The notes beneath the pieces are model-generated. The model saw nothing but the letters and a program-made list of their open reading frames with translations, searched no databases and was not told the DNA's origin. Shown piece after piece: positions 1-8,280 of a stretch of 8,280 nt of DNA; position 1 is the first letter of the stretch; every line of letters starts with the position of its first letter. The position numbers and the translations under genes are program-made. The stretch comes from a virus. Taxonomy: Duplodnaviria > Heunggongvirae > Uroviricota > Caudoviricetes. The DNA is taken from IMG/VR virus record IMGVR_UViG_2690316227_000016; one strand, 5' to 3'.

Positions 1-1242
1 ATGGCGAGAAAAACACACCCATTAACCACAGTGCAGATCAAAGCAGCCAGACCAGCGCAAAAGGAGTACACCCTGCAGGACGGCGGAGGGCTTTTTCTCC
101 TGGTCAAACCGTCTGGATCAAAACTCTGGAGATTTTCCTACTACCGACCATCGGACAAAAAAAGAATATTGCTGAGTTTTGGATCGCTTGAAGATGTTTC
201 CCTGGCTGATGCCAGAAAACGCCGTAGCGAGTACAGGACGTTAATCAGTGCCGGAACTGACCCGCAGGACCACGAGAGGCAAAAAAGAGAGACAGAGGCC
301 CGAAGACAAGGGAACACGTTCGAAAATGTGGCGGCGGCATGGTACCAGGTGAAAATCAGCCAGAATCTGGCCCCCAACACGATTAAAGACATCTGGCGTT
401 CGCTGGATAAATATGTATTCCCGTTCATCGGCAACACGCCAATAGATACCCTCACCGCCCGAAGGTTCGTTGAAGTGCTTACCCCCATCAAGGAGCGCGG
501 CAACCTGGAAACACTCAAGCGGGTTTTACAGCGCGTTAATGAGGTAATGGATTACGCCGCCAACAGTGGGCTGATTGATGCCAATCCGGCTATGAATGTG
601 CGTAAGGCGTTTCCCTCACCTGTAAAAAAACATATGCCAACAATCCGCCCCGAACAGCTGCCGGAGCTTATGCAGGCTTTATCAGTATCGGCAACAGAAC
701 GGCAGACCAGATTACTGATTGAATGGCAGTTACTGACCGTAACCCGTCCCGCCGAAGCGTCATCAACGCGGTGGGATGAAATCAACCTGGACGCGAAGCA
801 ATGGACGATACCTGCCGGACGCATGAAGATGCGCAGGGATCACGTTATCCCGCTTTCCGGTCAGGCTATGGCGGTGCTGGAGGCCATGAAACCAATCAGC
901 CACCACCGCAATTACGTTTTCCCAAGTCTGAAAGACCCACAGCAGCCGATGAACAGCCAGACAGCTAACGCAGCATTGCGGCGTATGGGATTCGCTGGCG
1001 TGCTGGTGTCTCATGGATTACGCGCCATATTCAGCACAGCAGCGAACGAGGAAGGATTCGAGCCGGACGTAATAGAGGCGGCACTTGCCCACGTCGACAC
1101 CAACGAAGTTAGACGGGCATACAACCGGAGCAACTACATAGAAAAACGCATCGTGCTGATGCGCTGGTGGGGCGAATTTGTCGAGGCTGCGGCGACGGGC
1201 GTAACCCTCGCCAGTGGTAAAAGGGGTATCCGAGCCGTGTAG
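1..1242 (+). CDS. int: Tyrosine recombinase / integrase, P4-family (prophage CP4-57-like)
   Basis: 413-aa ORF filling the frame. C-terminal catalytic-type motifs are visible: TRPAEA (Arg), HGLRAIF (His-x-x-Arg), LAHV (second His), RRAYNRSNY (Tyr region). The N-terminal part resembles the arm-binding domain of P4-like integrases. Family assignment is from motif recollection, not a search. Confidence 0.9.
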   Translation: MARKTHPLTTVQIKAARPAQKEYTLQDGGGLFLLVKPSGSKLWRFSYYRPSDKKRILLSFGSLEDVSLADARKRRSEYRTLISAGTDPQDHERQKRETEARRQGNTFENVAAAWYQVKISQNLAPNTIKDIWRSLDKYVFPFIGNTPIDTLTARRFVEVLTPIKERGNLETLKRVLQRVNEVMDYAANSGLIDANPAMNVRKAFPSPVKKHMPTIRPEQLPELMQALSVSATERQTRLLIEWQLLTVTRPAEASSTRWDEINLDAKQWTIPAGRMKMRRDHVIPLSGQAMAVLEAMKPISHHRNYVFPSLKDPQQPMNSQTANAALRRMGFAGVLVSHGLRAIFSTAANEEGFEPDVIEAALAHVDTNEVRRAYNRSNYIEKRIVLMRWWGEFVEAAATGVTLASGKRGIRAV

Positions 1243-1250
1243 CTGTACAG

Positions 1251-1295
1251 AAAACCAGTAAAAACTACGAAAACCATGTAAAACCGTCGTATAAT
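1251..1295 (+). promoter_or_regulatory. Phased A-tracts (AAAAC[C/T] at 1251, 1261, 1270, 1280) followed by a consensus -10 hexamer TATAAT (1290-1295)
   Basis: Four A-tracts at 9-10 bp spacing, read directly, which is typical of bent DNA or an UP-element-like region. A perfect TATAAT follows immediately. No convincing -35 was found. Confidence 0.3.
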
Positions 1296-1319
1296 TGCAT
1301 CAAATTTAACGACAAGGCC

Positions 1320-1571
1320 GTGAAACATGAAACCGTTAAGATGCAAAAAAATATCAGATGCAATTGCGACGGGCTGCAACTGGCCCTGATGGTTCAGCAT
1401 GAATTTTGGTCAACCTACGATCCGGAGGACAGGACGACGGCCCCATCAAAAAAACAGGTAGTAGATTTTCTGGTATCCCGTGGCGCTTCCAGAAATCTGG
1501 CGGTAAGTATTGATAAGGTCGTACGTCCGGCATCTATGAAGATCGGAGGCAGGCCCAAAAAATGGCGGTAA
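1320..1571 (+). CDS. Hypothetical small protein (83 codons from GTG 1320; first in-frame ATG at 1341)
   Basis: ORF bracketed by the TATAAT at 1290-1295 and a strong intrinsic terminator at 1583-1605. Basic C-terminus (GGRPKKWR). No family recognised and the Shine-Dalgarno is weak, so it could instead be a non-coding transcript. Confidence 0.3.
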   Translation: MKHETVKMQKNIRCNCDGLQLALMVQHEFWSTYDPEDRTTAPSKKQVVDFLVSRGASRNLAVSIDKVVRPASMKIGGRPKKWR

Positions 1572-1582
1572 CAATCCTGGAA

Positions 1583-1605
1583 GCGGCAGAAATGCCGCTT
1601 TTTTT
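1583..1605 (+). terminator. Rho-independent terminator
   Basis: GCGGC-agaaat-GCCGC hairpin (1583-1598) followed by T7 (1599-1605). Confidence 0.65.
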
Positions 1606-1632
1606 ATAATTCCATTTCAAATCATCAATATA

Positions 1633-1722
1633 AAAAACGGTGTATACCGTTTAAAAACGGTGGGAACTGTTTTTACCCATATCCGATGATTTACCGTATT
1701 TGTCACCGGAATACACCGGATT
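1633..1722 (+). promoter_or_regulatory. Operator-like repeat cluster upstream of alpA
   Basis: Direct repeat AAAAACGGTG at 1633-1642 and 1653-1662 (20-bp phasing). Perfect inverted repeat ACGGT-gtat-ACCGT at 1637-1650. Direct repeat CACCGGA at 1704-1710 and 1714-1720 (10-bp phasing). Confidence 0.35.
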
Positions 1723-1738
1723 CACAAGGTAAATCACG

Positions 1739-1945
1739 ATGGAAGCAATCAGAAAAATTATCTTTCGCCAGGAAGTAAAAAAAATTATCCACATCAAGGC
1801 AGACAGCACGCTGCAAAGCATGATCAACGCCGGAGAATTTCCGCAGGGTTTTCGCGTTGGTTTACGCCGTCGCGGATGGTATGAGGATGATGTGTTGGCC
1901 TGGCAGAAAGAACGCGAACAGGAAGCACGCGGAACGGCTGCTTAA
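1739..1945 (+). CDS. alpA: AlpA-family phage transcriptional regulator (small HTH/MerR-like)
   Basis: 68-aa protein with the characteristic AlpA-family C-terminal region (EFPQGFRVGLRRRGWYEDDVLAWQKERE). Position immediately after int is typical for P4-like elements and PICIs. Confidence 0.8.
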   Translation: MEAIRKIIFRQEVKKIIHIKADSTLQSMINAGEFPQGFRVGLRRRGWYEDDVLAWQKEREQEARGTAA

Positions 1946-1971
1946 CGGGTATCACAGATATGACAAACACG

Positions 1972-2004
1972 AAAAAAGCGGCCCCGATATGGAGCCGCCT
2001 TTCT
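1972..2004 (-). terminator. Hairpin flanked by an A-run on plus and T-run on minus; probable terminator for the minus-strand operon
   Basis: GCGGC...GCCGC stem (1978-1998) with A6 at 1972-1977, which is T6 on the minus strand downstream of the stem. The plus-strand side has only CTTTCT, so termination of alpA is weaker. Lies about 90 bp past the minus-strand gene that ends at 2094. Confidence 0.3.
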
Positions 2005-2093
2005 GAACAATTAACCCGCTGCGCCTTATGTGTATGTGATCCCAAACATAAGCACGGGGATGATAGCCGCTATCAGGCTGGTGGGCAATGCAA

Positions 2094-2282
2094 TCAGTCT
2101 GGTTCAGTTCGTTGCCATACCTGCAATGAGCGCTTTTCCCTATACTCTTTAAGGAATTGCTCAAGGGCAAAAGCACATGGCGCGAATCTTTCTGATTCAT
2201 GCTCTATCTTTCTGCGCCGTCTTTTCCGTGCCGGTGATAATGTTTTGGTCAATTCTTTATCAGTCATTGTGTTGTCCTGCAT
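2094..2282 (-). CDS. Hypothetical small basic protein (62 aa; alternative start at 2267 gives 57 aa with a better SD)
   Basis: Co-directional with, and 42 bp downstream of, the Arc-like gene. Contains an Arg/Lys-rich stretch RKRRRRK. An AGGA lies 9 nt upstream of the internal ATG at 2267. No family recognised, and ORFs in other frames overlap it. Confidence 0.3.
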   Translation of the reverse strand: MQDNTMTDKELTKTLSPARKRRRRKIEHESERFAPCAFALEQFLKEYREKRSLQVWQRTEPD

Positions 2283-2324
2283 AGCAATGCGCCGTAATAC
2301 CTCACACCACGGCGCTGATAGTTT

Positions 2325-2516
2325 TTATCCTTTGGGTTCTATGCCGCGCCGCTTTAGTTCAGTGCGCCCCAACTCTTTAAGCCAGTTGGCTAGGCTTATG
2401 CCGTCGCTCTGTGCTTCTTTGTCGAATTGCTCTTTTAGCTCTGGAGAAATTCGCATTCTGAATTGTGGGGATTGCCCGTCCCCTTTAGGGCTTTTATCGC
2501 GTTTGATTGTTGACAA
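2325..2516 (-). CDS. Arc-like ribbon-helix-helix DNA-binding protein (putative repressor)
   Basis: The segment SPQFRMRISPELKEQFDKEAQSDGISLANWLKELGR follows the phage P22 Arc pattern (PQF-x-LR...G-x-S-x-N). Only the TTG start at 2516, with AGGTGA 4 nt upstream on the minus strand, keeps the predicted beta-strand; the first ATG (M21) would remove it. Confidence 0.5.
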   Translation of the reverse strand: MSTIKRDKSPKGDGQSPQFRMRISPELKEQFDKEAQSDGISLANWLKELGRTELKRRGIEPKG

Positions 2517-2561
2517 GTGGTCACCTATTGAATTAGCCTTTCCATTGTTAGGTGGTCACCT
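2517..2561. promoter_or_regulatory. Divergent control region with two GTGGTCACCT direct repeats (2517-2526, 2552-2561) and a TTGACA hexamer (2510-2515)
   Basis: Exact 10-mer repeated 35 bp apart. Each contains the odd-centred palindrome GGTCACC. The repeats lie between the divergently oriented Arc-like gene and the Icd-like genes. A matching -10 was not found. Confidence 0.4.
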
Positions 2562-2588
2562 TAACACAAGAGCACTTAAAAAAGCAAA

Positions 2589-2619
2589 GCCCCGCAAGTG
2601 TCATTACCACTCGCAGGGC
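2589..2619 (+). promoter_or_regulatory. Leader stem-loop upstream of the first Icd-like gene
   Basis: GCCCCGCAAGTG (2589-2600) and CACTCGCAGGGC (2608-2619) pair at 10 of 12 positions around a 7-nt loop. No T-run follows, so it is not a terminator. Confidence 0.3.
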
Positions 2620-2650
2620 TTCTAACCAACAACGTAAACTAGGAGCCGTT

Positions 2651-2848
2651 ATGGTTGCCGTAAATCATATACCACACCTTGTACACACACAAACGGCCTT
2701 TGTGTGGCGTTTTCTGGCCCTGAGTGCCGGAGAATCTCAAATCATCCACGTAACCGCCTGGACGGAACGCGAAGCGCGTAGCCGTTGCCCGTCCGGTTGT
2801 GTTGCTGTATTCGCCGCCCGTATTCGTCAGGGGTCACATCATGCGTAA
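2651..2848 (+). CDS. Icd-like small protein, copy 1 (host cell division inhibitor Icd-like family, tentative)
   Basis: 65 aa with an AGGAG 6 nt upstream of ATG 2651. Shares the motifs FVWRF...T...TEREAR...FxARIRQG with the ORF at 3135. The family name is from recollection of P4-like prophage annotations, not a search. Confidence 0.5.
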   Translation: MVAVNHIPHLVHTQTAFVWRFLALSAGESQIIHVTAWTEREARSRCPSGCVAVFAARIRQGSHHA

Positions 2849-2868
2849 AAACCGCTTGCAAAAAATTA

Positions 2869-3105
2869 TAACGGGGCTGTATGCTTCCCCCGTCGCCCAC
2901 ATGGCGACCGGGTTTAGCAGCCTGAATACTGTAGCGGACAGCCGCTTATATTCCGATATGCGGTTTTTTTGTGTCCGTAAGCCTACCCATACCCGCATTA
3001 TGGCGGGGCGTAACGGGGGAGCCTTTGCGCTCGCTGGTTCCTACAGTGCCAGTCTGCTAACCCTGTTACGTCTCGCCACCCCGTTTAGCAGCGTAGTAGC
3101 GAGAC
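2869..3105 (+). repeat. Duplicated non-coding module between the Icd-like genes
   Basis: TAACGGGG at 2869-2876 and 3011-3018. GTTTAGCAGC at 2912-2921 and 3083-3092, followed by GTAGCGGACAG and GTAGCGAGAC respectively. A near-complementary CTGCTAA-CCC element sits at 3054-3063. Small hairpins at 2871-2893, 2892-2908 and 2992-3007. Confidence 0.4.
2934..2970 (+). terminator. Intrinsic terminator-like hairpin plus T7
   Basis: GCGG-aca-GCCGC (2934-2945) and a CCGC...GCGG stem (2942-2963) followed by T7 (2964-2970). It lies inside the apparent N-terminal extension of ORF 2799..3299, which argues that the extension is non-coding. Confidence 0.5.
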
Positions 3106-3134
3106 TCCTTAAAATTACTGTAGGAGCCTTTCAC

Positions 3135-3299
3135 ATGGCTGTATCCGCACGCCCTTACTTTGTCTGGCGCTTTATGCAGTGCCACCACAGCTGCATTGAT
3201 GTATTCACCGTTACCGCTGCCACTGAGCGCGAAGCACGCGCCCAGCTGCCGCACGCACATCTGATTTTTGTCGCCCGTATTCGTCAGGGGGTTTTGTGA
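3135..3299 (+). CDS. Icd-like small protein, copy 2 (paralog of 2651..2848)
   Basis: 54 aa. The TAGGAGCC ribosome-binding context 8 nt upstream of ATG 3135 mirrors that of copy 1. Conserved motifs YFVWRF, TEREARAQLP, FVARIRQG. Its TGA stop overlaps the next start (TGATG at 3297-3301). Confidence 0.5.
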   Translation: MAVSARPYFVWRFMQCHHSCIDVFTVTAATEREARAQLPHAHLIFVARIRQGVL

Positions 3300-3526
3300 T
3301 GAATAAAGTCCCTTTTGAAGTATTAAGCCACTCTGAAAACGCATTAACTAAAGCGCGCGAAATGAATGCGCTGTTAATTAAGTTAATAGACGTGCCGGAA
3401 GATGGTGGAGAACCTGCATCATTAATATTTGCCGCCGTTCAGACATTACTATCGCCTGTAATTGATGAACTGGATAAGGCGATGGCAATTCACGAAAATA
3501 ATAAAGCGCCCCACACCGGAGAATAA
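3299..3526 (+). CDS. Hypothetical small acidic protein (75 aa)
   Basis: ATG 3299 overlaps the stop of the preceding gene, suggesting translational coupling. No family recognised. Confidence 0.45.
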   Translation: MNKVPFEVLSHSENALTKAREMNALLIKLIDVPEDGGEPASLIFAAVQTLLSPVIDELDKAMAIHENNKAPHTGE

Positions 3527-3531
3527 AAATA

Positions 3532-3831
3532 ATGAAACTTAAATATCCTGGCTTAACTGCCAGCGGCAAAACTCGCACTAAATTCATGTGCGGGGATATT
3601 TACCGCGATAAGTACGGCGGAACGGTAATGATTAAGGGCGTGGAGGAACGGCGCGTAACTTACCGCCGTGAAGGCTACGAATATGATTGCGTTATGCCTG
3701 TTTATCAGTTCGACCGTGATTTTTATCTGGTACAGGCAGCGCCCCGCAGTAAGCCAACCAGCAGGGAGAAAGCACGCGCCAATATTCAGGAAATAAGAAA
3801 GATGTTGAACGTATTCAGGGGTAAAAAATGA
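3532..3831 (+). CDS. Hypothetical protein (99 aa)
   Basis: Begins MKLKYPG. Its stop overlaps the start of the replication ATPase (ATGA at 3828-3831). Protein-like composition; possibly a prophage DUF family, unverified. Confidence 0.5.
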   Translation: MKLKYPGLTASGKTRTKFMCGDIYRDKYGGTVMIKGVEERRVTYRREGYEYDCVMPVYQFDRDFYLVQAAPRSKPTSREKARANIQEIRKMLNVFRGKK

Positions 3832-5237
3832 AACTTGCACCGAACGTAAAACAATTACCGAAAGACAAATACACCGAAGCAATTATTTTCGCGGGGAATG
3901 ATGCGCACTCATTTGCAGAGCACTACATCATTGCACAGGCCAAAAAAGCAGGCGATCCAGTCCCCCCCGTTTATCTGGGGTGTTATCAGTTAAGCGAACT
4001 GGATAACCTCCAGATTGTTGATGATGGGCGATACAGGGCGACGGTGATACGCGCCGGAAATATTGAAGAGCCGCAGCTGTTAACCATCGCCACGAAACTG
4101 GCGATCGCCGGAGTCCAGGAGGCGCGGCTAATTTCTGAAAATTTCGAATTGCTGGAGGAATGGAACGACCAGCTTCCACGGCTTAGGGAGGCATGGGAAC
4201 GCGGGGAAAGCCTGGTCATGAAAAAAATCCCCCAGCGAAAAACCACGCTACCGATGAGCGTTGGATCTACCGGATACGACACGCAGCTTGATTACGTGGT
4301 AAAGGGGATTATTCCGGCATCGTCGCTTTGCAGCATATACGGGGCGAGCGGTTCCTATAAATCATTCCTTGCCGGATCGTGGGCGTGTCACGTTTCCACG
4401 GGCCGCCAGTGGGGAGGCCGCAGGGTGGCGCATGGCGCTGTTCTCTATGTGGTTGGTGAAGGCGGTATTGGCGTTCCGCGTCGTGTAAAAGCCTGGGAGG
4501 TTGTGCACGGGGAGCAGGTGAAAAATCTTTACCTTGTAAACCGTCCCATCTTTCCGGCTGTCCCGCTTGATGTTGATGAACTGGTTATTGCTGCCAGCCA
4601 GGTTGAGCGGGAAACGGGTAAACCGGTTCTAATGATTATTCTGGACACGCTGGCGCGTTGCTTTGGCGGCAATGACGAAAATGACTCCCGTGACATGGGG
4701 GCGTTTATCCGTGGATGTGACGAACTGAAACGACGCACAGGGGCCACGGTGCTGGTGGTTCACCATTCCGGCAAGGATGAAACAAAGGGCGCGCGTGGTT
4801 CCAGTGCATTCCGTGCATCGCTGGACGCTGAATACAGGATACGCAGAGAGGACGCAGGAAGCGAAGCGCTGGTCATCTCATGCACCAAAATGAAGGACGC
4901 GGAGGAACTCAAAGAGGCTGCCTATGATTTGCGGGTTGTGGAGCTTTTTACCGACGCTGACGGCGAATTAATTACGTCGCTGGTGGTGGTGGATGAGCCG
5001 CGCCCACCCGTTGAACTGGAGCGCATCGAGGAGGCAGGCAACAAGACGGAAAACCATACCGCGCTATGGGGGTGCATCCGTTCACGCACACAGAACGGCG
5101 ACAAGTGCACGATCCCGCTGTTGCGTGATGACATGAAGAAGATGGGATACGAAATGAAGCACTTCCGGCGCTGGCTGGGCAAGCTGGAAAAAGACGGCGT
5201 TATCTATGTTGACGGCGATGATGTAGGGCCACTGTAA
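3828..5237 (+). CDS. Replication ATPase/helicase, RecA-like (AAA_25/RepA-type); probable satellite replication initiator
   Basis: 469 aa with a P-loop-like GASGSYKS, a Walker B-like PVLMIILD, and the VLVVHHSGKDETKGARGSSAFRASLD block typical of RepA-like NTPases. The C-terminal roughly 100 aa could be a DNA-binding domain. An iteron array follows directly. Confidence 0.85.
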   Translation: MKLAPNVKQLPKDKYTEAIIFAGNDAHSFAEHYIIAQAKKAGDPVPPVYLGCYQLSELDNLQIVDDGRYRATVIRAGNIEEPQLLTIATKLAIAGVQEARLISENFELLEEWNDQLPRLREAWERGESLVMKKIPQRKTTLPMSVGSTGYDTQLDYVVKGIIPASSLCSIYGASGSYKSFLAGSWACHVSTGRQWGGRRVAHGAVLYVVGEGGIGVPRRVKAWEVVHGEQVKNLYLVNRPIFPAVPLDVDELVIAASQVERETGKPVLMIILDTLARCFGGNDENDSRDMGAFIRGCDELKRRTGATVLVVHHSGKDETKGARGSSAFRASLDAEYRIRREDAGSEALVISCTKMKDAEELKEAAYDLRVVELFTDADGELITSLVVVDEPRPPVELERIEEAGNKTENHTALWGCIRSRTQNGDKCTIPLLRDDMKKMGYEMKHFRRWLGKLEKDGVIYVDGDDVGPL

Positions 5238-5440
5238 AAAGTGGGAAGTAAAAGTGGGGAGCATGGGGAATTTAACAAAATTTAAACACGCTTCCCCACT
5301 TTTCGACCTGTATACACCCCAAAAAGTGGGGAGCAAAAAAATCCTTATGAAACAGCATGATAAAAATTACAAATCCCACGCCTTTAACGAGGTGGGGAAT
5401 TGTGAAAAGTGGGTAGTAAAAGTGGGTATAGGTGGGGAAA
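5237..5440. repeat. Iteron array, putative replication origin
   Basis: Six full copies of AAAAGTGGG(G/T)A at 5237-5246 (ending in A rather than G/T), 5250-5260, 5293-5303 (inverted), 5322-5332, 5405-5415 and 5418-5428, plus half-sites GTGGGGA at 5392-5398 and 5432-5438. AT-rich stretches are interspersed, and the array starts at the stop codon of the replication gene. Confidence 0.6.
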
Positions 5441-5448
5441 TAACCAAA

Positions 5449-5691
5449 ATGCGCAGAGACAGAACACAGCAAAAATATAAAGCGTTAGACATGACAGAGC
5501 ACGCTTTAAAGGTGGCAATCAAAGTTATAGACCGCCACACGCGGGAAGGATACGCGAATGAACATCCCGAACTGATAAGCGCATTCATGACCACAGCGGC
5601 GGCAAACTTTGCCACGCTGACAGAACGGGAGATTGCCGAAGCGGAACAGGTAACAACCATCAACGTTAAAACCGGAGAGGTGGAATCATGA
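5449..5691 (+). CDS. Hypothetical small protein (80 aa from ATG 5449; track ORF extends to 5254 across the iterons)
   Basis: The stop overlaps the ssb start (ATGA at 5688-5691). The upstream extension is encoded by the iteron repeats and is probably not translated. No family recognised. Confidence 0.4.
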   Translation: MRRDRTQQKYKALDMTEHALKVAIKVIDRHTREGYANEHPELISAFMTTAAANFATLTEREIAEAEQVTTINVKTGEVES

Positions 5692-6098
5692 CAGCACAGA
5701 TAGCAGCTTACGGGCGGCTGGTGGACGACCCGCAGGTAAAACAGACCAGCAAGGGCACACCGATGACGCTGGCGCGTATGGCGGTATCACTGCCATGCAG
5801 TCAGGCACAGGACGGACAGGCGACGTTATGGTTATCGGTCATCGCATTTGGCAAACAGGCCGACCAACTGGCAGGACATGAGAAAGGCAACGTAATCAGC
5901 TTATCCGGCGTGATGCAGGTCAGTCAGTGGACCGGACAGAACGGGGAGACGCGTCAGGGTTATCAGGTCATTGCCGACAGCGTAATCAGTGCGAAAACGG
6001 TGCGACCAGGCGGGAACAGACGCAAGACCACAGGCACACAGGGTAATCAGCCACCAGCGGGAGGCGATGATCCTTACGGTGATGATATTCCGTTCTGA
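5688..6098 (+). CDS. ssb: Single-stranded DNA-binding protein (SSB family)
   Basis: 136 aa with an OB-fold-like N-terminal region (GRL..DP, W at about position 48, FGK, KG), a Gly/Pro/Gln-rich linker and the characteristic acidic C-terminal tail DDIPF. Confidence 0.8.
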   Translation: MTAQIAAYGRLVDDPQVKQTSKGTPMTLARMAVSLPCSQAQDGQATLWLSVIAFGKQADQLAGHEKGNVISLSGVMQVSQWTGQNGETRQGYQVIADSVISAKTVRPGGNRRKTTGTQGNQPPAGGDDPYGDDIPF

Positions 6099-6107
6099 AC
6101 GCACAGG

Positions 6108-6130
6108 CCGGAGCAATCCGGCTTTTTTTC
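6108..6130 (+). terminator. Rho-independent terminator after ssb
   Basis: GCCGGA-gcaa-TCCGGC hairpin (6108-6123) followed by T7 (6124-6130). Confidence 0.7.
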
Positions 6131-6217
6131 AAACTCTCATATCTTCAAAAATGGTTAATTAATGATAATCTATCGAAAATACTGATTATGCGATGATAAG
6201 TATCAGGAGGAAACAAA

Positions 6218-6412
6218 GTGGAAGAGATAAAGCAAAGCGCTACCGTGATGATTGATCATGAAATCCTTAACGAGCTTAAAAAGTTGCAGTTCGATATTGT
6301 TCGCCGGATGAATGAATCGGGCATCTACGGCAGAGCCGCCACGCCAACAATAGGTCATCTTGCACGTGTGCTGTTACGCGAAAGACTGGGCATTGCAACA
6401 GGTGAGGCATAA
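6218..6412 (+). CDS. Hypothetical small protein (64 aa, GTG start)
   Basis: Strong AGGAGG at 6205-6210, 7 nt before GTG 6218. Could be a small DNA-binding protein, but this is unverified. Confidence 0.45.
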   Translation: MEEIKQSATVMIDHEILNELKKLQFDIVRRMNESGIYGRAATPTIGHLARVLLRERLGIATGEA

Positions 6413-6415
6413 CAA

Positions 6416-6577
6416 ATGGCTATCACAGAACGCGAGGCAAGCATCATTAAGGCCATTGGCGAGGAAACAAGAGACACAATAGCGCCATTGATGGAAAAGA
6501 TCGCAGAGCTTGAGACACGAATAAACAAGCTGAGTAATGAAGTTGAAGGCCTGATCTCGTTACTCGGTGAGCAATGA
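6416..6577 (+). CDS. Hypothetical small helical protein (53 aa; not in the ORF track)
   Basis: Translated by hand from ATG 6416 to TGA 6575-6577 as MAITEREASIIKAIGEETRDTIAPLMEKIAELETRINKLSNEVEGLISLLGEQ. It starts 4 nt after the previous stop and has coiled-coil-like composition. Confidence 0.3.
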   Translation: MAITEREASIIKAIGEETRDTIAPLMEKIAELETRINKLSNEVEGLISLLGEQ

Positions 6578-6580
6578 CAT

Positions 6581-6630
6581 GGGGGGGTATCATCCGGCGA
6601 AAAAAACGATCGCCACGGACACCGCCCCCC
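6581..6630. repeat. Imperfect inverted repeat capped by G7 and C6 runs
   Basis: GGGGGGG (6581-6587) and CCCCCC (6625-6630) with partly complementary arms (CCGGCG and CGCC) around an A7 centre. No T-run follows. Confidence 0.25.
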
Positions 6631-6660
6631 GTCTCATTCGTAGAAAATTTTGCTTTTCAA

Positions 6661-6684
6661 AAAAGTTACACGAAAAGTTACACC
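6661..6684 (+). repeat. Tandem 12-bp repeats AAAAGTTACACG / AAAAGTTACACC in the terS leader
   Basis: Two adjacent 12-mers read directly. The exact 12-mer AAAAGTTACACC recurs at 6927-6938 inside terS. Confidence 0.55.
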
Positions 6685-6705
6685 CCCTCAAAACGAGGTT
6701 TTTGC

Positions 6706-7194
6706 ATGGCATTAACGACCAAAAAAAAGCGGTTTGCTGATGCGTTATCAAGGGGCGCAAATCCCACGGAAGCCGCTATACATGCGGGATACAGCGAAAA
6801 GACCGCAAGGGTTAAAGGCTGGCAGCTATCCAACGATCCTGAGGTGAAAAAGTATCTTAAGGCTGTAACTTCTGATGTAACTTTTCAGGTTACAAAACCG
6901 AAAAAAGTTACAAAGAAAGTTACCGAAAAAGTTACACCGGAACGGGCATCAATTAACACCATTGAGATGATGGATAACGGCCTACCCGACCCCATCAAAG
7001 CAATGGGCAGGATACTGATTGACAACATGGACACAGATCCAAAACTGGCTTTAGATGCCGCGTTTAAGCTGGCCCAGTTCACCCACCGCAAGATCGGCAG
7101 CATTGGGAAAAAAGAGGTTAAAAAACTCAATGCCGCTAGTGTCTACTCAAATCGGTTCCCCATCCCTAAGCTACCAACAGACTTAAAACACTGA
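6706..7194 (+). CDS. terS: Terminase small subunit (Terminase_2 / SaPI-TerS-like family)
   Basis: The N-terminus KKKRFADALSRGANPTEAAIHAGYSEKTA matches the conserved HTH of Terminase_2 small terminases (KRFA...AAI.AGYS.KTA). GAGG lies 8 nt upstream of ATG 6706. The track ORF from 6574 is an untranslated in-frame extension. Confidence 0.7.
   Translation: MALTTKKKRFADALSRGANPTEAAIHAGYSEKTARVKGWQLSNDPEVKKYLKAVTSDVTFQVTKPKKVTKKVTEKVTPERASINTIEMMDNGLPDPIKAMGRILIDNMDTDPKLALDAAFKLAQFTHRKIGSIGKKEVKKLNAASVYSNRFPIPKLPTDLKH
6864..6938. repeat. Phased GT(A/T)AC array inside terS (12-bp period, both orientations)
   Basis: GTAAC at 6865 and 6877, GTTAC at 6889, 6907, 6919 and 6931, with spacings of 12, 12, 18, 12 and 12 bp. 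Encodes the VT-x-x repeat in KPKKVTKKVTEKVTPE. Confidence 0.5.
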
Positions 7195-7205
7195 GGTAGC
7201 GAACT

Positions 7206-7367
7206 ATGAGCGAATACATCACAGACCCTATTGATGTACTCACGGAAATCATGAACGACAAGCAGCAGTCGACCGAAATACGGTTACAGGCCGCCGCTGT
7301 TCTGATGCCATATTTTCACGAAACACTAAACCCGTGCTTCCAGGAGGAGGAAGAAGATGATTTCTAA
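7206..7367 (+). CDS. Hypothetical small protein with acidic tail (53 aa; not in the ORF track)
   Basis: Translated by hand as MSEYITDPIDVLTEIMNDKQQSTEIRLQAAAVLMPYFHETLNPCFQEEEEDDF. GAGG lies 9 nt upstream, and the ORF overlaps the next gene's start by 11 nt. Confidence 0.3.
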   Translation: MSEYITDPIDVLTEIMNDKQQSTEIRLQAAAVLMPYFHETLNPCFQEEEEDDF

Positions 7368-8280
7368 AAACATGAAAGGCGTGTCGGCAGTTCGCGCCGC
7401 CAGCGTGCTTACATCGTGTAAATTCAGCCATGCAGACGCTATAGAGATGACGAAAAGAAATGATCCGGCAGTATCGAAATTTCTTGAAAAATCCATTGTT
7501 GCCGGAATGACTACGGATAATATGCCGTCGCTGGTGGCAGAGCCGATAGTAAGAGAGCTTGGTGAGTATATTTTTTCGCAGTCTGTACCAGGCAAGCTAA
7601 TCAGCAGCGGGCTGAATCTTCCGTTTGGCGCAAAATTGCAGTCAATATCAGGCAAGGGTAGTAAATGGCTTAAAGAAGCCGAAGAAATCCCTGTCAAAGA
7701 GGGAGAAGTAAACGAAAGCGCGCTAAAACTGTGCAAACTTGGCGCTATTGTGATGCTGAATAACGAGCTAATCAAATTTAGCACCCCTGGCACCAATTCA
7801 GCGATCAGAGACTTGATCACATCGGAATCGGTGAAAGAAATAGATAAAAAATTTCTTTCCAGTGACAAGGAGGTGGCTGGCGTATCCCCTGAGGGCGTGC
7901 TTAATGGTGCTGATGAGGCCGAAAACTTCATAGAGCTTTTCAAAAAGCACATAGCGAACGGTAACACGCTTTCCACGTCGTCGCTAATCTTGCCCGTAGA
8001 AAACGCCTTACAGCTTACTGATGCTGAGTTCTGGCAGATAGAGCTTTTGAGAATACCGGTAATTGTGAGCGAACAGGCGGATCGCATGATGCTGATAGAC
8101 GCTCAAAAGCTGATTATTAACGTTGAAGCCACGGTTATAACCCCAACTGATGAGGCGGTAATAAAAACCGAATCAGGGGCGGTTAGCCTTTTCCAGAATG
8201 ACGCTACAGCGTTCAGGGCAATCACCTATTGCGGATGGCAAAAACTCGATAAGGCCGTCACCGTTCTGGCGAAAAGCTGA
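7357..8280 (+). CDS. Probable HK97-fold major capsid protein
   Basis: 307 aa with GGAGGAGG 6 nt upstream of ATG 7357. The C-terminal region LLRIPVIVSEQ...LIDAQ...FQNDATAFRAITYCGWQKLDKAVTVL follows the usual HK97-type capsid C-terminal pattern. The stop falls at the window end. Confidence 0.55.
   Translation: MISKNMKGVSAVRAASVLTSCKFSHADAIEMTKRNDPAVSKFLEKSIVAGMTTDNMPSLVAEPIVRELGEYIFSQSVPGKLISSGLNLPFGAKLQSISGKGSKWLKEAEEIPVKEGEVNESALKLCKLGAIVMLNNELIKFSTPGTNSAIRDLITSESVKEIDKKFLSSDKEVAGVSPEGVLNGADEAENFIELFKKHIANGNTLSTSSLILPVENALQLTDAEFWQIELLRIPVIVSEQADRMMLIDAQKLIINVEATVITPTDEAVIKTESGAVSLFQNDATAFRAITYCGWQKLDKAVTVLAKS

Follow-up and report, generated by a model that had tools for sequence, protein, structure and literature searches.

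Does a phage satellite that encodes a small terminase subunit (TerS) and a protein with the HK97 capsid fold build heads of its own, or does it exploit those of a helper phage? The question is raised by an 8,280-nucleotide stretch of viral DNA (IMG/VR record IMGVR_UViG_2690316227_000016; the whole stretch is called the window below) for which the architecture of a capsid-forming phage-inducible chromosomal island (cf-PICI), continuing past the right edge, had been proposed. We think it probable, with good confidence, that the window instead contains every gene of a classical phage-inducible chromosomal island (PICI) of the Escherichia coli EcCI family, one that does not form capsids of its own. 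The gene order given by the original prediction, from integrase, AlpA, an immunity-like region and a RecA-like replication ATPase with 3' iterons through a single-stranded-DNA-binding protein (SSB) to TerS and an HK97-like capsid protein, agrees with our profile searches, weakly so for AlpA, and these also bear out the capsid and TerS calls (Table 1). Its view that the element is a satellite rather than a classical P4 or a helper phage is likewise sound by gene content: there are no tail or lysis genes, no ORF (open reading frame) matched a primase domain, Sid, Psu or Delta, and a trait in common with P4 is an antisense RNA of the C4/CI class (71.5 bits), with the alpha primase-helicase, sid, psu and delta missing.

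The element is not capsid-forming because the island ends directly after the capsid-like gene. Base 1 of the window is the ATG of int and base 8280 the end of the capsid-like gene's stop codon, and several IMG/VR provirus records of this element (among L014 to L022) are trimmed likewise at the capsid stop codon; the right edge is therefore the boundary of a record and not a broken island, and both edges are best read as annotation cuts at gene boundaries rather than as island ends. A tRNA scan of the window found none, and the attachment (att) sites, which lie outside it, were consequently taken from relatives that are 93–99% identical across the packaging genes. In these relatives int targets the 3' end of tRNA-Pro (proL) between yejM and yejO, and an integrase of 100% amino acid (aa) identity lies 218 bp from tRNA-Pro in both L001 and L004. 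The closest complete genome, E. coli CD45 (L001; 97% identity across 94% of the window), has the order yejM, tRNA-Pro, int, island genes, capsid-like gene, ~330 bp, yejO, and E. coli SMN013SH2 has the same layout. In CD45 the last 17–18 nt of tRNA-Pro are repeated 327 bp past the capsid stop codon, the att core CTCTCGTGC(C)GACCAAA stands at both island ends and a 26-nt arm-type repeat lies just inside each; with the att arms counted, the island measures ~9.3 kb from att core to att core. A tRNA 3' end with a direct repeat, for which a search upstream of int had been advised, is thus found in the relatives. The advised search downstream for portal, protease and large terminase subunit (TerL) leads there to a non-coding stretch of ~330 bp, then arm repeats, the att core and host genes; wherever a relative could be read that far, no gene follows the capsid-like one before attR/attP, and by this evidence the island does not run on as had been thought.

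Neither the window nor any relative's island encodes a portal, protease, TerL, HNH protein, adaptor or connector, and family searches and annotations gave no tail genes, lysis genes or full head module in either. cf-PICIs are defined by genes for capsid, protease, portal, head-tail adaptor and connector, HNH, TerS and TerL in ~15 kb (10.1101/2022.09.08.507074; PMC10085698), with adaptor, connector and TerL serving as the markers that separate them from PICIs (PMC10085698). Of these traits the major capsid gene is present, while protease, portal, TerL, HNH, adaptor, connector and the ~15 kb size are not; the claim that the island carries its own packaging and capsid genes accordingly stands for TerS and one capsid homologue and fails for all remaining head and packaging genes. 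Classical PICIs have a core of int, AlpA, pri-rep, TerS and a gene for capsid morphogenesis, the last of which is common in Proteobacteria, and are otherwise devoid of structural genes; PICIs with all five core parts, reported in E. coli, are called "Type A" (PMC10085698). This description suits the element well, since it combines an int with a specific att site, a replicase with 3' iterons, a putative capsid-morphogenesis gene and TerS with no other structural or lysis genes, and the relatives' islands are bounded by host genes. The tail, lysis and full head modules of a complete prophage are absent.

The packaging genes recur at the end of otherwise different islands. In an O157:H7 strain, the trio of terS, a 53-aa TerS-like ORF ("mini-TerS") and the capsid-like gene (97–99% aa identity) is terminal in an island with another integrase and a P4-family primase that sits between cspD/yljB and clpS. 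The island of Serratia aquatilis, which has int and a D5-type primase and abuts tRNA-Met, mug and rpoD, ends in a trio of 45% identity. Metagenome contigs with a 50%-identical capsid homologue show the capsid gene, ~450 bp and then int. A word-indexed protein search (6 matches) was broadened by a full HMMER scan and a profile search, and a search for related loci with a 6-sequence alignment found a single genome locus, in Serratia. Of 5426 complete E. coli genomes, 220 carry an intact trio with 95–99% identity, and most of these are Shiga-toxin-producing E. coli (STEC). The dN/dS of the capsid gene is 0.08–0.18, and the packaging module, as judged from these comparisons, is intact and under purifying selection.

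An IMG/VR contig (L021) joins the capsid-side arm to the int-side arm via the exact tRNA-Pro core, which would represent either the attP of an excised circle or a tandem pair of islands. Between positions 3599 and 4305 of this 8 kb draft-genome contig, capsid gene, palindrome, arm repeats, tRNA-Pro core, arm repeats and int follow each other; the contig contains an N and duplicated gene ends, so a scaffolding artefact is possible. In L001, two 33-nt units with the perfect palindrome CCCGATATGGGGATCCCCATATCGGG (20774–20806 and 20892–20924) lie between the capsid stop codon and attR, and one copy of the unit is also found within the L021 junction.

Which phage would supply the missing parts? Searching TerS and the capsid homologue against 50,697 phage records gave, as best E. 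coli matches of both, Stx1a-, Stx2a- and Stx2c-converting phages and PPompW-type lambdoid prophages, whose head module has the order HNH, TerS, TerL, a 645-aa protease-scaffold-capsid fusion and portal. HNH and TerL are present only in these candidate helpers and not in the satellite islands. The strongest nucleotide match between the window and the Stx/PPompW phages does not lie within a gene: 55 of the 57 nt at 6581–6637 (96%) are identical to the HNH–terS spacer of Stx1a_PV728, and the block is 85–91% identical in 94 phage records, all of them Stx-converting or lambdoid. HNH-dependent cos phages (HK97-like) keep cos between HNH and terS, and this 57-nt block upstream of terS is likely a cos site. 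Each of the satellite-bearing genomes that we sampled (11/11) contains 4–9 copies of the block, and candidate helpers are therefore co-resident.

Sibling satellites (L001 at 19062–19098, L004 and L008) differ in the left half of the cos-like block (GAGTGTTCCGGCCGGAAAGTCGATC, to be compared with window positions 6588–6615); they keep its right half GGACACCGCCCCCCGTCTCAT, and their packaging module is otherwise 96–98% identical. The sibling variant has no match above 78% in the phage collection, and because L001 carries it, a blastn-short comparison of L001 with the helpers did not find the cos block. Only the version in the window resembles known phages closely, which hints at a switch of specificity or at recent exchange with a helper. 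In the Serratia aquatilis island (L012, 9343–9400), an inverted pair of G10 and C7 runs ~35 nt apart lies just upstream of terS; it echoes the window's arrangement of G7 and C6 runs and has no other sequence similarity to it.

Beyond the cos-like block, the motif AAGTTAC is strongly enriched, with 8 matches in the window versus 0.76 expected and 7 of them clustered at 6663–6935. The counterpart position in the phages holds five repeats of a different motif, (A)TGTTAAC. TerS, whose start is most likely at 6706, is 46–47% identical to the TerS of PPompW/Stx phages, and by region the identity is 62% in the N-terminal DNA-binding part, 30% in the linker and 71% at residues 88–125. Mini-TerS always lies between terS and the capsid-like gene, whose start it overlaps, and is kept in L005, L006 and L012, including the Serratia and metagenome relatives. 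Its likeness to TerS is weak: it resembles TerS residues 88–137 with a Smith-Waterman score of 41 versus 22.8 +/- 3.7 for shuffled sequences (0 of 500 reached the score), BLASTP against satellite and helper TerS gave no match, and the Smith-Waterman comparison with helper TerS was not significant (63 of 500 shuffles reached the score). Mini-TerS could be a decoy for helper TerS. The two small ORFs at the start of the module are kept with it in all relatives, at 46–51% identity in the distant contig L006, and had no family matches in Pfam or PHROG. Over 23 residues, the second of them (6416–6577) resembles a part of the portal gene region in the candidate helpers, with 57% identity and a pairwise E of 6e-5; the resembling segments lie at 7735–7803 of L002 and 8776–8844 of L003.

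For the capsid-like protein, an AlphaFold2 model built with 22 homologues (mean pLDDT 86.6, pTM 0.84) matched HK97-fold capsid proteins in Foldseek with probability 1.0, among them those of Bxb1, 80alpha/SaPI1, the P4 procapsid and the Ccm-containing SaPIbov5 procapsid (7rwz). In sequence it aligns to residues 291–633 of the 645-aa fusion protein of PPompW phages (24% identity, E 7e-21), that is, to the shell domain without protease or scaffold, and neither domain was found in the 307-aa protein. It belongs to a distinct family with only 8 clusters at E < 1e-30 and is presumed, by analogy, to be a capsid-morphogenesis (Ccm-like) factor.

From these observations we propose as helper a lambdoid prophage of the HNH/cos type, from the Stx1a/Stx2/PPompW group, whose signal would act via AlpA to bring about excision of the island and replication from its own origin. 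The satellite TerS, which would have kept a helper-like C-terminal core (71% identical) while its DNA-binding part diverged, could bind its own AAGTTAC repeats and recruit helper TerL and HNH to cut the shared cos core. The satellite would in this way retain the cut site of the helper and the motor-engaging surface of TerS, and because the TerS-binding repeats are its own, packaging would be diverted to the satellite. The capsid homologue may co-assemble with the helper capsid protein into small, satellite-sized heads like Ccm of SaPIbov5, and such Ccm-type co-assembly seems to us, by analogy, the most plausible route to small heads. Mini-TerS may in addition interfere with helper TerS. No experimental study of this PICI subtype was found in the literature.

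Other explanations deserve to be weighed against a classical PICI. That the island makes its own heads and takes only tails from a helper, with the remaining head and packaging genes beyond the right edge, would agree with the presence of TerS and an HK97-fold capsid protein and with the int/alpA/rep-type backbone common to the PICI family, cf-PICIs included; we nevertheless regard it as extremely improbable, as every relative shows ~330 bp, the att core and host genes after the capsid-like gene, the six further head and packaging functions listed above are missing, the capsid protein has no scaffold or protease partner, and the island has ~9.3 kb rather than 15.4 kb. The gene order is also at odds with this explanation, since Proteobacterial cf-PICIs place their morphogenetic genes before hnh-terS-terL and here terS precedes the capsid gene. 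The small size and the lone capsid gene without its usual partners could also mark an immobile deletion derivative of a cf-PICI or prophage in which TerS and the capsid gene were kept by accident, and most such islands are indeed annotated as defective prophages. This we hold to be quite improbable: the trio is terminal in islands with differing integrases, replicases and att sites and, at 45% identity, in another genus, all ORFs are intact, the capsid gene has the low dN/dS given above, a contig with an attP-type or tandem junction exists, and a helper-like cos block is retained.

A further idea is that the 307-aa protein serves as the main or sole shell protein, on a helper portal and with helper protease and scaffold, which would make the element an intermediate between classical PICIs and cf-PICIs. 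No part of the HK97 fold is missing from its predicted structure, which matches the mature capsid domain of the helper, and its family is distinct, conserved and under strong purifying selection. Still, HK97-type shells normally need a delta/scaffold domain or a separate scaffold gene, neither of which is present, the sole solved precedent, Ccm, fills pentamers only, and with just 24% identity to the helper capsid protein the use of helper scaffold is uncertain; we consider this rather improbable. A related proposal, which we rate as unlikely though worth stating, is a third strategy of hijacking between the classical and the capsid-forming ones, in which the satellite would use its own TerS and private repeats beside a copied cos, small heads would be put together on the helper portal, with the fused helper protease-scaffold, from its own mature-form shell protein, either entirely or in particular capsomers, and a TerS fragment would disable helper TerS. 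Finally, TerS, mini-TerS and the capsid homologue might together poison helper assembly or packaging, with the island transferred in full-size helper capsids. Blocking of the helper is common among PICIs, EcCICFT073 travels in full-size heads even though it has a capsid homologue, and mini-TerS looks decoy-like, but such interference is compatible with a classical PICI, a cos-like block and TerS-site repeats of its own suggest that the island directs its own packaging, and 9.3 kb is ~1/5 of a helper genome of 44–57 kb, which fits small heads. As a separate explanation we find it very improbable.

Several points speak against our preferred account of a classical PICI with Stx-type helpers. Since the window goes no further than the capsid stop codon, the end of the island is borrowed from relatives and not read from its own right flank; induction, the identity of the helper, the position of the cos cut, binding by TerS and the small capsids are predictions from sequence; and the AlpA call, which falls under the Pfam cut-off, is weak. 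The siblings' left half of the cos-like block, with its lack of a phage match, leaves the role of the block and the helper range unsettled, and co-occurrence of the island with helper-type prophages is confounded by STEC lineage. Moreover, deletion of the capsid homologue of EcCICFT073 did not relieve interference with lambda, and full-size capsids were used; a capsid homologue of a Gram-negative PICI therefore need not resize capsids, and by analogy the one described here might not do so.

Table 1. Genes, RNAs and DNA sites of the window (positions count from its first letter)
Feature	Position	Strand	Evidence or remark
Tyrosine integrase, P4-int type, with arm-binding domain	1..1242	+	PF00589, PF22022, PF13356; NCBIfam NF007246 (PRK09692) 552 bits
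76-aa hypothetical ORF	1341..1571	+	Annotated CDS in relatives, 100% aa identity
AlpA-like HTH regulator/excisionase	1739..1945	+	Pfam AlpA 17.6 bits (cut-off 21); PHROG 66, 2790, E 5.5e-7
Arc/ribbon-helix-helix-like (YlcI/YnfO family) protein	2325..2516	-	PHROG 228 Arc-like repressor, E 5e-7; RefSeq name in relatives
First Icd-like (cell-division-inhibitor-like) ORF	2651..2848	+	NF033153 phage_ICD_like 63.5 bits
a1/b1 target sites of C4 antisense RNA	2879..2928	+	RF03163 45.5 bits (gathering 46.7), E 3.6e-9
C4-type antisense RNA (phage P1/P7 c4, P4 CI class)	2996..3083	+	RF01695 71.5 bits (gathering 45), E 7.7e-13, full-length
Second Icd-like ORF	3135..3299	+	NF033153 51.4 bits
76-aa conserved ORF, PHROG 2196	3296..3526	+	46% identical to EcCICFT073 ORF
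DUF4222 protein, RgdR family of PICI regulators, 99 aa	3532..3831	+	PF13973 E 1.4e-22; 82% identical to CFT073 C1493
Replication initiator/helicase, AAA_25 RepA-type RecA fold	3828..5237	+	PF13481 E 3.7e-42; PHROG 2850 E 5e-224
Replication origin (predicted), six AAGTGGGNA iterons	5239..5428	.	5 direct + 1 inverted around AT-rich spacer, directly 3' of rep
80-aa conserved ORF, PHROG 1231	5449..5691	+	E 1e-49; 77% identical to EcCICFT073 counterpart; overlaps ssb start
Single-stranded-DNA-binding protein SSB	5688..6098	+	PF00436 E 2.6e-15; 92% identical to EcCICFT073 SSB
Two small conserved ORFs, start of packaging module	6218..6577	+	64 aa (6218-6412); 53-aa coiled-coil-like (6416-6577)
Candidate cos core: G7 run, ~38 nt, C6 run	6581..6647	.	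Common to HNH-terS spacer of lambdoid Stx/PPompW phages
Seven AAGTTAC repeats, both orientations	6663..6935	.	Upstream of and inside terS; candidate satellite-TerS (cosB-like) sites
Small terminase subunit TerS, 162 aa	6706..7194	+	PF03592 (Terminase_2) 41.6 bits; PHROG 641 E 2.5e-42
53-aa TerS-like protein (mini-TerS), acidic EEEEDDF tail	7206..7367	+	PHROG 641 positions 89-125, E 3.5e-7
HK97-fold major-capsid-protein homologue, 307 aa	7357..8280	+	PF05065 29.7 bits, TIGR01554 28 bits; last island gene

The backbone of the island is that of a PICI, with all major genes on the plus strand save one small divergent gene. The integrase carries the Pfam domains Phage_integrase, Phage_int_M and Arm-DNA-bind_3. 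In the replication module, the iterons placed 3' of the ATPase by the original prediction are real repeats: AAGTGGGNA matches 6 times at 5239–5428 versus 0.29 expected, and none of 200 shuffles reached six. No primase domain was matched in the replicase by Pfam. Its N-terminal 126 aa are nonetheless 48% identical to the N-terminus of the EcCICFT073 primase, and past these ~126 residues the enzymes belong to different classes, a helicase in the window and a primase in EcCICFT073 and the O157:H7 island. This N-terminal domain seems to be common to the replicases and swapped between replicase types. Against the primase-type replicases of both EcCICFT073 and the O157:H7 island, the first ~126 residues (3828–4205) reach 42–49% identity, again to the N-termini. 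The SSB gene is missing from some sibling islands.

Between integrase and replicase lie the regulatory genes. The 76-aa ORF that follows int had no family matches in Pfam and NCBIfam searches and has a terminator-like hairpin downstream (1579–1602). The AlpA call is weak: the PHROG families (labelled "excisionase and transcriptional regulator") and the position of the gene just after int as in EcCICFT073, with 43% identity to its counterpart across 30 aa only, favour it, and the Pfam score lies below the cut-off. The protein is presumed to be a helper-responsive activator. Upstream of its gene, tandem 20-nt repeats AAAAACGGTGTATACCGTTT / AAAAACGGTGGGAACTGTTT with an inverted partner at 1699–1718 (region 1633–1718) are possible regulator-binding sites. 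The Arc-like gene is divergent from the immunity and replication operon and has operator-like direct repeats TTGACAAGTGGTCACCT / TTGTTAGGTGGTCACCT beside it at 2510–2561. A promoter scan of 1200–3400 performed no better than chance.

The immunity-like region (~2325–3299) is, by its RNA and protein family matches, a P1/P4-type C4 antisense-RNA cassette with two Icd-like ORFs. Following the a1/b1 targets there is an isrK-like hairpin with a T-run to 2970 (RF01394, 35.7 bits, under the gathering score), and a second target-like copy GCCACCCCGTTTAGCAGC lies at 3075–3092. The second Icd-like ORF stands first in a tightly packed string of genes, with overlaps at 3296/3299 and 3828/3831, whose last member is the helicase gene; this positions the C4 RNA to control the replication genes; we infer that it may do so as in P1 and P4. 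Rfam found no C4 RNA at gathering score in EcCICFT073 or the Serratia island, so C4 immunity is not family-wide and is a variable accessory, and EcCICFT073 has a single Icd-like gene versus two in the window. The RgdR-family protein has CGD instead of RGD at residues 20–22 and A at residue 10. RgdR activates type III secretion of the enterocyte effacement locus (LEE) in O157, CFT073 C1493 has been named as an RgdR variant, and the same residue changes were reported for the RgdR variant of commensal ED1a, which failed to activate secretion (PMC3378721).

Beyond this locus, the analysis has corrective value, as a lone capsid gene and terS at a trimmed provirus edge can mimic a cf-PICI without being one. 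The subfamily occurs in ~4% of complete E. coli genomes, largely of Shiga-toxin-producing strains, and the helpers suggested by its packaging signals are prophages of the Stx-converting and related lambdoid kinds. Should this be true, the islands could influence how much Stx phage is produced and how genes are transferred in STEC; in addition, they encode a regulator of the RgdR family, which acts on LEE type III secretion. With its own TerS, a seemingly copied cos and a capsid homologue, the element is a clear and small system for experiments in Gram-negative PICIs.

How does the element compare with known satellites? Like P4, it is a satellite of Enterobacteria with a P4-family integrase carrying an arm-binding domain, immunity by C4/CI-class antisense RNA and, putatively, redirection of capsid size. 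Unlike P4, it lacks the alpha primase-helicase, sid, psu, delta and epsilon, and P4 uses the external scaffold Sid on the P2 capsid protein and has neither a capsid homologue nor TerS. With the cf-PICI EcCIEDL933 it has in common PICI backbone genes, TerS, an HK97-fold capsid protein and an occurrence in Enterobacteria alongside lambdoid phages, whereas cf-PICIs additionally encode protease, portal, adaptor, connector, HNH and TerL, genes that are absent here, have ~15 kb and leave the helper unharmed. The Staphylococcus aureus pathogenicity islands (SaPIs) of the pac type (SaPI1, SaPIbov1) resemble it in that a satellite TerS redirects helper TerL to satellite DNA, as is predicted for the window, and in having a small possible blocker of helper TerS, Ppi in these SaPIs and the 53-aa TerS-like peptide here. 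They package by headful and use the scaffolds CpmA and CpmB, whereas the window appears to pair its own TerS with a helper-type cos core.

SaPIbov5 comes closer in the logic of packaging. Each element pairs a cos site of its helper (a likely one in the window) with a protein distantly related to that helper's HK97-fold capsid protein, and HNH-dependent cos phages serve as helpers of SaPIbov5 and, by our prediction, of the window. Ccm sits at the pentamer positions in SaPIbov5 particles and imposes small T=4 heads. In sequence, Ccm and the capsid homologue are not detectably related, the host of SaPIbov5 is Gram-positive, and Ccm keeps a shortened delta domain while the window protein begins at approximately the mature N-terminus of the helper capsid domain. 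SaPIbov5 is also without TerS, which the window encodes.

The nearest known system is EcCICFT073 (Fillol-Salom 2018, 2019; Type A of de Sousa 2023), which has the same order from int to SSB, followed by a hijack module with a capsid homologue; that EcCICFT073 and PmCI172 have such homologues was described in 2018. Common to both the window and EcCICFT073 are int, an AlpA-like gene, a divergent YlcI-like gene, an Icd-like gene, small ORFs, RgdR/DUF4222, replicase, origin, a small ORF and SSB, together with rightward transcription, iterons 3' of rep, the lack of tail and lysis genes and a size of 9–11 kb. They differ in the replicase (an AAA_25 helicase in the window, a primase in EcCICFT073), in the C4 RNA and duplicated Icd-like genes of the window (EcCICFT073 has no C4 match at gathering score) and in the att site, which is tRNA-Pro for the window's relatives and roxA/phoQ for EcCICFT073. 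The hijack modules are unlike each other: in EcCICFT073, TerS is lacking and the genes are those for a decoration protein, Rpp and a capsid homologue of the lambda type, and the window carries TerS, mini-TerS and a capsid homologue of the HK97/protease-fusion type. Because synteny with EcCICFT073 extends from int to SSB and the last module alone is different, the window is, as far as gene order and content go, a mosaic member of a known PICI family.

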